Below, piece after piece: positions 27,463-30,400 of a stretch of 33,473 bases of DNA (its first letter is position 1; every line of letters starts with the position of its first letter). Position numbers and translations under genes: made by a program. The notes beneath the pieces were generated by a model that saw only the letters and a list, made by a program, of their open reading frames with translations, did no database searches and was not told the origin of the DNA. The DNA is taken from the NCBI GenBank assembly GCA_048213135.1, contig PS015773.1:1588-35060 (forward strand), given 5' to 3'. The DNA comes from Reclinomonas americana ATCC 50394 (Eukaryota).

Positions 27463-30400
27463 TTACAGCACCGGCGTGACGGCGACAGCCATGGACTCCT
27501 GTGCGTGACTGGGTGAGAACAGCGTGCGTGAGCAGGAGTTGATGTGGCTGTTTGCGCAACGATGGCACACTCGTCGGTTCCGCGCTGTGACACAATGTGA
27601 GTCATGAAGCGAAAGACAAGGAGAGACAAAAAAAGGCAGAGTCGACTTACCCGAATGCGGAAGAAACCGTCCTCGCCCCAGGCAGTCTGCGCGAGATGGC
27701 AGTGAGAGGAGTGGGGGAGCAAGAGGCAGCATGCAACCAAGGGAGAGAGAGAGAGACAAACCCCTGTGTTGTTGTGGACATGGCGACGATGAACGCAAAA
27801 GAAATGTGAGAAGACGGGGCATCTTCAGTTGTCTGTCAACCAAGCAACTCACCCCTGCAGTCACACGAGTGAGACATCGCACGACAAGCACACATTGTGG
27901 ACGAAGATATACTCACCAGCTGTTCTTGACCTTCCAGAACTGCGACGATGACGAGGAGACTCGTGTTAGTCAAGAACGGGGGAGGACACGCGCCGAAGCG
28001 AGCAGCGACTCAACCTTCACGCCATCGGATGTGGTTCCGTATCCGACAATTACCACGACTGCAAAGCAAAGAGAGAGGAGTAAGAGGGATAGTCATGCAG
28101 GCTCGGTGGCACGACCACAAACCATCTGCGCAAATGACGACACGTGAGTGGTGCGCAGCATGTCAAAATCAATGACAAAAGGCGCAACGATTGGTCAGCT
28201 GGAACGGGTTGAAGGTCACCAGGTGCGACACTGCGGTGTGCGAGTACACGCCACCCTGCCAGGCAAGCTTCAGTCCAGCAAACGACACACTCTAACCATC
28301 GGTAACGCCACACACCTTGTAGTTGTGCAGGTCGGGGTATACCTCGAACGAGACAGCAATCGGGCCATTCGCCACCAACTCCTCCATCATGTTCAGCTCC
28401 GTGGCCGCACCGTAGTAGCCACCAATGTAGTGGTAGTCGCTGTGCAACGGAGCATGTCAGAGGGAGGGAGAGAGTGACGAAAAAAGCGTGGCGAAAGGGA
28501 ACGAAACGAGGTCCAGTGCAGGCGCGGGTTGGAGCAGCGCTTCGAGCACGACACCTACAGCCATGGATGGTGAGAGAGGTGACAGAAGCGGCAGCGTGTC
28601 CTGCACACACCTCCGTGGCAACATACGGGAAGCAGCTCTCCTCCACGTGTCCAAAGTCGTGGCCGTACTGTGCGGTCGCACGAGGCGAGTGCAGTGAGCG
28701 ACGACTAAATTACACAGGGAGACGAAGAGAACCAGACCTTGCCAGCAGCCAGGTACGGGAAGCCGCCTGCGTCAACACATTTCGTCAGTCGGGTGCACTC
28801 GGCACAGGAAGAGAGGTGACAACACACACCGTTGCAGCCGTGCGAGTAGACAGAGCACGAGACAATGTTCTGAGTACTGAGAATGACCTACACAAATACA
28901 CGCGCACGTGCGTACGTGAGCAAAGCACTCAAGTCATACACTTCAAGCAAGGCAGGCAGGCAAACGCACCGTGTTCGTGTTGTTGGAGAGAATGCGCAGG
29001 CGAGCCTCGAGTGTGGCCGCCGACGCAAAGGCGTAGCAACTGCCGCATTGCTGTGTGGTGCACGGTGATGCGCGCGCATGAGCAAGTCAGAGTGGGGGAG
29101 GGAGGGAGAGAGGGAGGGAAAGAGTGCGACTCACCCCCTGGTTGCTGTTGGCGAAAACGAGAAAAAGAAGCAGATGAGTTCACAGCGTGAGAGAGACAGC
29201 AATCGCGCGACAGGCACGCACCGAATGGGCGACACGTAGCTCACCTGTACAAAATAACACAATCAGCACGTGAGAGACTGCCATAGCACCCCCTGCATTT
29301 CGTGTGTATCACGCAACTCCATTGACATTGGTCCAATCCCACGAGTCCGGCAGCGTCGACGACAGCGACGTGGCCGCGTTCTCCGCCAACTCCGGCTTCT
29401 GCGGCTTGGTGACAGCGGCGGCCAACTCCTGGCGCGCATACGAGCCACCGGCACGGCGCTCCATCTGAACAAGGCAGCGTGGTGAGCTCGAGTTCACAGG
29501 TGTGATCCGAGTCACGCTTCACGCAACATCGCCAATGGTCAACCCGAGGTGCTCGTCGTAGGTAGTGGCCGTCCACAGGCTCTGCGCCTTGTTGATGGCG
29601 TCCACAAACTCAAAATCGTGCTCGTACCTATGCACACGCCATGTGAGTCGACGACATACACGAACGAGGCATCACGAAACACAACTTGAGCTGGGCGCGG
29701 AGCGGGTCGACCACGGCCAAGTCGAGGCTCGTGCGGAGCGGCACCTTGGGCGTCTCCGGCGCGTTCTGCGTCTTGATGCCAAAGTAGCAGCCCCAGTTGC
29801 CCGGCTACAAGTGCCATGAGACGAATGAGCAGCGCACGCACGAAACACAATCTATGCTCTTCAAACGGCCTCACCGCATACTGCTCTCCATCGTTATGGT
29901 ACCACCCCGGCAGCGTCTCGGAGCACACAGAGGTCACATGGCCACTCGGATCGGTCACCCACTTGGAGAAGGCGAAGAAACGACGACCGCCGACCTTGAC
30001 TGCACTCACGGTTGAGAACAATGACGCCAAACACACAATGACAAGCGAGAAAACAAACCGTCAAACGACCTGTCATGAGGGGGTTTACATAACAACAGAA
30101 GGTGATTAGTGAGTGTGCAGTGCGCGCCTGTGCACGGTTCTGTTTGTTACACGAAACATGGAATAAATCATGGTCCAGAAACCCTGATTGCCGGCACTAT
30201 CCGTGACCTTGTCGGGGTAATCCAGTGTGACTGTGTACGTGTTCTCCACCTATTGTACGCGCATCCACTGAGCACACACACAGTGGAGAAGAACAAACAA
30301 GCGCGCGCGCAACAGTGAAGGGATTGGTGCAGTTGATGTTGTCACGAGTGAAGCCGGCCGGACCCAAGTGGAACGTCCACGTGCCACGCACCTGTGACGC

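Follow-up and report, generated by a model that had tools for sequence, protein, structure and literature searches.

Two consecutive 2-nucleotide exons predicted within the NSWG motif of an intron-rich cathepsin C gene in Reclinomonas americana

The DNA analysed here, a stretch of 33,473 nucleotides (nt) from contig PS015773.1 of Reclinomonas americana ATCC 50394 (hereafter the window), carries a cathepsin C (DPP1) gene on its minus strand. The gene model was built by eye and then verified by script. It has 26 exons and 25 introns, the latter all GT-AG and 56-89 nt long, and its coding sequence of 1443 nt, including the stop codon, encodes 480 amino acids. The reading frame was open through all 26 exons. 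With 25 introns in 1.44 kilobases (kb) of coding sequence, the mean exon length was ~55 nt. A 230-nt interval interrupts the codons of the NSWG motif, and it is best explained by two consecutive exons of 2 nt each, surrounded by three introns of ordinary size (Table 1).

Table 1 Features of the cathepsin C and UBA1-like genes, in window coordinates.
Feature	Position	Strand	Content	Flanks or evidence
Cathepsin C (DPP1) gene model	27463..30613	minus	26 exons, 25 introns	manual model, script-checked; spliced aligner with P0001 gave the same chain
11-nt exon	30059..30069	minus	exclusion domain (...M-S-F-D...)	alignment and aligner with P0001
10-nt exon	29135..29144	minus	completes Arg, then Asn-Gln-Gly	directly before the catalytic-Cys exon
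3-nt exon	28123..28125	minus	ATG	recovered with 8/8 homologues by the aligner
Exon 21 (23 nt)	27917..27939	minus	F W K V K N S, then TG (positions 1 and 2 of the Trp codon)	
Intron 21 (62 nt, phase 2)	27855..27916	minus		5' GTGAGT, 3' ...ctgcag
Putative microexon 1 (2 nt)	27853..27854	minus	GG, third base of Trp and first base of Gly	ctgcag/GG/gtgagt
Intron 22 (89 nt, phase 1)	27764..27852	minus		5' GTGAGT, 3' ...aacacag
Putative microexon 2 (2 nt)	27762..27763	minus	GG, second and third bases of Gly	acacag/GG/gtttgt
Intron 23 (75 nt, phase 0)	27687..27761	minus	open in frame when retained	5' GTTTGT, 3' ...gcgcag
Exon 24 (36 nt)	27651..27686	minus		gcgcag/ACTGCC...
Putative 3-nt exon, UBA1-like gene	14370-14372	plus	TAC	gcgcag before, gtgcgt after
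Putative 3-nt exon, UBA1-like gene	14461-14463	plus	CTG	atacag before, gtgagt after
Candidate 4-nt exon, UBA1-like gene	14115-14118 (region 14048-14205)	plus	CTGT	introns of 67 and 87 nt

Pfam was run on single exons, not on the whole spliced protein. The translation of 29875-30060 matched the exclusion domain (PF08773; E = 2e-8, 34.9 bits, cut-off 27), and the exon with the catalytic Cys matched Peptidase_C1 (PF00112; E = 2e-5, 25.2 bits, cut-off 20.7). A further exon reached 16.6 bits against Peptidase_C1 (E = 0.0087), under the cut-off of 20.7, and the fourth of the single-exon translations tested had no Pfam match. A single-exon protein search gave 17 matches among 21 candidates, all of them cathepsin C-like. 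The top match had 80% identity, and with this query no near-identical protein was found in the protein collection. The predicted protein begins with a signal-like peptide, followed by ...ADTPANC.... Its QCGSCYAF, TNHVV and KNSWG segments aligned column for column with 12 homologues; we take the Cys, His and Asn in these segments to be the catalytic residues of the papain family. The predicted protein aligns with cathepsin C/DPP1, a papain-family C1A protease with an exclusion domain, in both domains, in the Cys, His and Asn motifs and at the mature N-terminus ...DTPANC....

Read on the minus strand, the upstream exon ...AAGAACAGCTG stops at 27917, and gtgagt runs from 27916 on (...TTCTGGAAGGTCAAGAACAGCTG, exon end at 27917, then gtgagt ... 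ctgcag). The downstream exon, ACTGCCTGGGGCGAG..., begins at 27686. Direct joining of the two gives TG+A, a stop codon, as an earlier note on this DNA had pointed out, and the four bases GGGN are needed to complete NSWG. The same note proposed that two cagGGgt sites inside the interval supply these bases as GG + GG. Every element it described is present on the minus strand at the coordinates given, and only its description of the next exon as large was off the mark, since that exon has 36 nt (27686-27651). Both GG exons have cag before and gt after them, with complete introns on each side. The interval (27687-27916) is accordingly made up of 62 + 2 + 89 + 2 + 75 nt. The note had called the three intron pieces normal in size, which agrees with the 56-88 nt of the other 22 introns of the gene model.

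Exactly one canonical GT-AG route through the real interval gives GGGN, namely GG (27854-27853) plus GG (27763-27762). The proposed joining TG + GG + GG + ACT to Trp-Gly was borne out to this extent: it is the sole canonical route, it restores both the motif and its spacing, and it was chosen by spliced alignment with 8/8 homologues. If the tiny exons are real, an assembly error in a G run could still have hidden another split, such as 1+3 or 3+1, or have produced an artefactual site. Both sites lie within runs of four Gs, and two N gaps occur in the window, which is a scaffold. However, the assembled sites total exactly the four bases needed, which makes the assumption of an error unnecessary, and we regard this alternative as quite improbable.

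The frequency of such routes by chance was estimated with two kinds of random sequence. In dinucleotide-preserving shuffles over the inner 192 nt of the interval, any GGGN route with introns of at least 40 nt arose in 34 of 20,000. With all introns held to 56-89 nt the count fell to 1/20,000, and with a branch-like motif also present in every intron it was 0/20,000. A first-order Markov model of the other 22 cathepsin C introns produced sequences that passed the same three criteria in 4, 0 and 0 of 20,000 cases. On both strands of the 33.5-kb window, AGGGGT was observed three times, versus 7.35 times expected from shuffles. Two of these three are the GG sites of the interval, on the strand of the gene.

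Each piece of the interval also carried its own splicing signals. The pentamer CTCAC was absent from the 1443 exon bases of the gene and occurred 18 times in its 1708 intron bases. It was found in 16/25 introns, and the looser motif CTNAY in 22/25. Introns 21, 22 and 23 each contained CTCAC exactly once, with the A at 27870, 27807 and 27703, respectively, which is 16, 44 and 17 bases from the 3' end of the same intron. In all three, the 3' CAG was the first AG downstream of CTCAC. By weight matrices, the 5' site of intron 22 scored above 96% of 248 decoy GTs, and its 3' site outscored every one of 95 decoy AGs. After exons of ≤11 nt, all five introns start with GTGAGT or GTTTGT, as does 1 of the 20 others (Fisher p = 1.1e-4, post hoc).

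The 5' sites of the cathepsin C gene were unusual in general, with T at position +3 in 14/25 introns and GTTGCG occurring seven times. GTTGCG recurs as a 5' site in introns of two neighbouring genes, one UBA1-like and one ZNFX1-like. Nothing linking a GTTGCG 5' site with splicing was found in the literature searched.

At the motif, Trp was present at its position in 12/12 aligned homologues, the motif read NSWG in 11 and NSWD in one, and the spacing to the next WG was identical, without any insertion or deletion. No insertions or deletions against these 12 were seen at any of the very short exons of the gene (11, 10, 3, 2 and 2 nt). Spliced alignments were made with our own protein-to-genome aligner, which allows exons down to 1 nt, accepts only GT/GC-AG introns and scores with BLOSUM62 and a flat intron penalty. 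The chain of 26 exons built by hand was reproduced exactly with P0001, including those of 11, 10, 3, 2 and 2 nt. For the C-terminal part, at a penalty of 12, the 3-, 2- and 2-nt exons were recovered with 8/8 homologues.

A profile scan of metagenome contigs found 57 further cathepsin C loci, with identities of ≤73% over one exon. The alignment reached the motif in 50/57; N[ST]WG..WG was present in 46/50 and its spacing was kept in 49/50. Compared with these relatives, the present gene is far more fragmented. Its last 150 codons hold 11 introns, versus the 0-3 modelled in 43 of the 50 loci reaching the motif; most of the higher counts among those 50 include spurious tiny exons from a loose aligner.

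These alignments also bear on a partial use of the sites, in which introns 21 and 22 are excised and intron 23 (75 nt) is retained. This would place 25 extra residues between NSWG and TAWG, and the retained stretch is indeed free of stops in frame (frame 2 open reading frame (ORF), 27824-27351). An insertion at this place was found in 0/12 homologues and in 0/49 spacing-keeping loci, however, and other introns of the gene share the type of 5' site found in intron 23, which also has CTCAC at 17 bases and ends in CAG. Retention is the least probable of all the alternatives considered here.

Several observations weigh against two 2-nt exons and have to be set beside this evidence. In intron 22 the branch-like motif is 44 bases away from the 3' site, a greater distance than in most introns. 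Of the 248 decoy GTs, 8% did as well as the 5' site of intron 23, and of the 95 decoy AGs, 24% did as well as the 3' site of intron 21; the matrices, derived from the 22 other introns, hold little information and are too weak to decide alone. At aligner penalties of 25 or 40 the tiny exons were recovered with 0/8 homologues, because the local alignment then splits into 1-6 exons. At the 50 metagenome loci aligned across the motif, no intron was found inside NSWG. Exact scans with the 36-nt downstream exon gave no match in either metagenome or genome contigs. While the four bases are clearly required, the 2+2 structure itself has no conservation support among the relatives examined. The presence of the four bases in the messenger RNA is, moreover, deduced from genomic DNA.

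Masking either GG site produced other GT-AG routes that scored 256 or 263, versus 270 for the intact pair. Since the masked routes score nearly as high, the alignment score alone is weak evidence, and some in-frame route is easily found in 230 nt. Such routes define an alternative of their own, a canonical splicing path that yields a non-consensus peptide, either through a 7-nt exon at 27847-27841 (...NSCCLTAWG...) or through GG and a 2-nt exon at 27822-27821 (...NSWD...). The aligner finds them once the GG sites are masked, at a cost of only 7-14 units, but chose them with 0/8 homologues when the sites were intact. They also replace Trp, Gly or both, at positions where 12/12 homologues have W and 11/12 have G. 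We consider this path less probable than an error in a G run.

A competing explanation is one intron of 230 nt with the inner AG-GG-GT sites unused. The mRNA would then read ...AGC TGA, and the gene would be a pseudogene or encode a truncated, inactive protein. An intron of ~400 nt occurs in an ARL2-like gene of the window; as longer introns do occur in this genome, length alone does not exclude a single 230-nt intron. The weakness of the splice-site matrices is a further point in its favour, as is the fact that use of the inner sites is read from the sequence and not from transcripts. On the other side, the remaining 23 exons keep an open frame with the catalytic Cys, His and Asn intact, and the inner sites would have arisen by chance, with odds of about 1 in 20,000 or lower. 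These sites would also happen to be two of only three AGGGGT in the window, and every sub-interval would happen to have its own CTCAC at a working distance. A single intron is very unlikely, although it is the least improbable of the alternatives.

The splicing signals were observed, the route is unique and improbable by chance, and the four bases are needed; two consecutive 2-nt exons are the best explanation of the interval. They are most likely real, with a probability of roughly 85%.

The ~400-nt intron of the ARL2-like gene (minus strand, ~5820-6245) was an outlier among introns of usually 55-100 nt. It contains CA/GA microsatellites and a short tandem repeat, and its boundaries are those judged by eye on the frame translations.

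In the 230-nt interval, Rfam matched no family, the predicted fold was not unusual (z = 0.23), and Pfam gave no match for an antisense ORF (27608-28147) or for a long out-of-frame ORF (27463-27912). Introns 21, 22 and 23 showed no similarity to each other, with pairwise local scores of 15-16 against a shuffle mean of 13.0 (standard deviation 2.4), and there is therefore no sign that they arose through duplication or from a repeated element. The best of all 300 intron pairs were CT-rich low-complexity matches. An origin of the introns by duplication or as an introner family was rejected, as they are not similar to each other.

The cathepsin C gene is predicted to need very small exons at three other conserved places (3, 10 and 11 nt), a precedent within the same gene. 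The 3-nt exon, between a preceding C and a following TC, carries two bases of the catalytic His codon and yields the His-Val of ...TNHVV.... Skipping it would keep the frame and change His-Val to Leu, with loss of the catalytic His, and the protein would presumably be inactive.

We propose that the 230-nt interval consists of three ordinary short spliceosomal introns of 62, 89 and 75 nt around two constitutive GG exons. Each of these introns would be defined on its own, by its own 5' site, its CTCAC branch-like motif and its own 3' CAG. Splicing of all three would join TG + GG + GG + ACT into Trp-Gly-Thr and so restore the segment after the catalytic Asn. Given what is known of U1 and U2AF binding, a 2-nt exon is too small for its upstream 3' site and its downstream 5' site to be recognised together. 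This argues for intron definition and successive removal, which we infer as a logical consequence of exons of this length. The introns would be excised one by one, in the manner of recursive splicing, and after each step the two newly ligated bases would form the end of the 5' exon. The G of the upstream AG is at the same time position -3 of the next 5' site. At each inner 5' site, positions -3 to -1 read GGG before and after upstream splicing alike, and for this reason the sequence imposes no order of removal. Co-transcriptional removal in the 5'-to-3' direction would be our simplest guess.

A second tandem pair of very small exons appears to be present in the UBA1-like gene on the plus strand. 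The aligner had treated 14296-14530 as one 'intron' of 235 nt, at the cost of two residues between ...NFP and IEH.... The outer boundaries are ...TTCCCT/gtgcgt upstream and tcgcag/ATCGAG... downstream, and two 3-nt exons between them (TAC and CTG, Table 1) divide the interval into introns of 74, 88 and 67 nt and give the reading NFP-YL-IEH. Two residues were present at this site in 22/22 pattern-matching representatives, one of which had YL; the pattern matched 22 of 46 full-length representatives and gave no match in the other 24. The same gene contains a candidate 4-nt exon, CTGT, although a single 154-nt intron in its place gives a protein of equal length. Among confidently aligned introns, 15/25 in the UBA1-like gene and 16/19 in the ZNFX1-like gene measured 50-100 nt.

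Across the window, YAG followed by 1-4 nt and then GTGAGT or GTTTGT occurred 12 times versus 5.97 expected, a count reached in 5/200 shuffles; this is a modest enrichment, and two of the 12 are sub-matches inside larger exons. Sites of this form were also noted at 690, 938-940 and 24194-24196 on the minus strand and at 7100-7103 and 17603-17605 on the plus strand. Some of these additional sites may be further tiny exons.

Two N runs (13537-13690 and 32123-32457) mark assembly gaps. The first lies within the UBA1-like gene, where the exon model is unreliable, and tiny exons proposed around it by the aligner at low penalty were inconsistent and not counted. A 1-nt exon in the ZNFX1-like gene was seen with one homologue only and was likewise left out. 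The ZNFX1/NFX1-type helicase-zinc-finger gene (17300-23900, minus strand) includes an exon of ~940 nt, so intron density differs strongly between adjacent genes. The ZNFX1-like exon of the window found only relatives of 30-55% identity, and the host lineage appears to be poorly sampled.

Tandem ultra-short exons may be a regular outcome of the extreme intron density of the host and not a one-off, with GTGAGT or GTTTGT used after the tiny exons. We hold this idea tentatively, at somewhat less than even odds. The spliceosome of the host would then routinely pass through adjacent short introns that share 2-3 exon bases, pairing the nearest sites with a short-intron ruler. If this is correct, the host would be a natural system for the study of iterative, recursive-like splicing in coding sequence and of the lower limit of exon size.

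If the two 2-nt exons are real, their inclusion takes three full splicing cycles without any cross-exon recognition, with exon-binding steps that each rely on bases ligated one cycle earlier. The locus would then be a natural test case for intron definition, for the order in which neighbouring introns are spliced and for how skipping of a 2-base exon is avoided. Standard gene finders and read mappers would mis-annotate such genes. A cathepsin C annotated in this way would have no Trp-Gly after the catalytic Asn, and no catalytic His at the 3-nt exon.

Exons of 1-3 nt are known, but rare. Another arrangement considered is the stwintron, a nested twin intron of fungi in which an inner intron interrupts a splice site of the outer one, which becomes usable only after the first excision. 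It was rejected here, because the unspliced sequence already contains each of the six splice sites in full. No tandem pair of exons of ≤3 nt was found within the limited collection of literature searched, and nothing describing tandem 2-nt exons was found there on intron-rich protists with microexons.

A review from 2026 gives 3-6 nt as the length of the shortest animal microexons (PMC13149111). Adjacent microexons of 5 and 12 nt occur in rice (PMC8831610), and human RPS24 has microexons of 3, 18 and 22 base pairs (bp; PMC12207440). As in these cases, at least two very small exons would follow each other here, each with its own introns. The pairs described in these sources include at least one exon of ≥12 nt, whereas here both exons would have 2 nt, leaving four exon bases between three introns.

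The 4-bp microexon of human MPC1 is constitutive, and its inclusion is reported to depend on exon-definition regions (PMC9929638). The predicted GG exons resemble it in having a length that is not a multiple of three and in their presumed constitutive inclusion. In MPC1, however, the 4 bp form one exon, while here four bases would be spread over two exons in a context of short introns.

At Drosophila ratchet points, zero-nucleotide recursive splicing keeps no base and takes place in very long introns (bioRxiv 10.1101/006163, PMC8605326). There as here, a 3' site adjoins a 5' site, and stepwise removal would place the upstream exon before a new 5' site. The zero-nucleotide AG-GT arrangement itself differs from what we found, as two exon bases stand between AG and GT at both sites. 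Unlike at the ratchet points, two bases would be kept at each step, both coding and essential, and the pieces removed measure only 62-89 nt.

A close likeness is to the constitutive 1-nt exons of the plant genes APC11 and VPS55, which were confirmed by reverse-transcription PCR and RNA sequencing and are conserved across land plants (Guo and Liu 2015, PMC4674806; Yu et al. 2022, PMC8831610). Like these, the exons predicted here are ultra-short, coding, flanked by canonical AG and GT, essential for the frame and of a kind routinely missed by annotation. The plant exons are single, 1 nt long, RNA-confirmed and conserved, whereas the present ones are 2 nt long, in tandem, predicted and shared by none of the relatives examined. 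Tandem 2-nt exons are an extreme variant of the known ultra-short exons.

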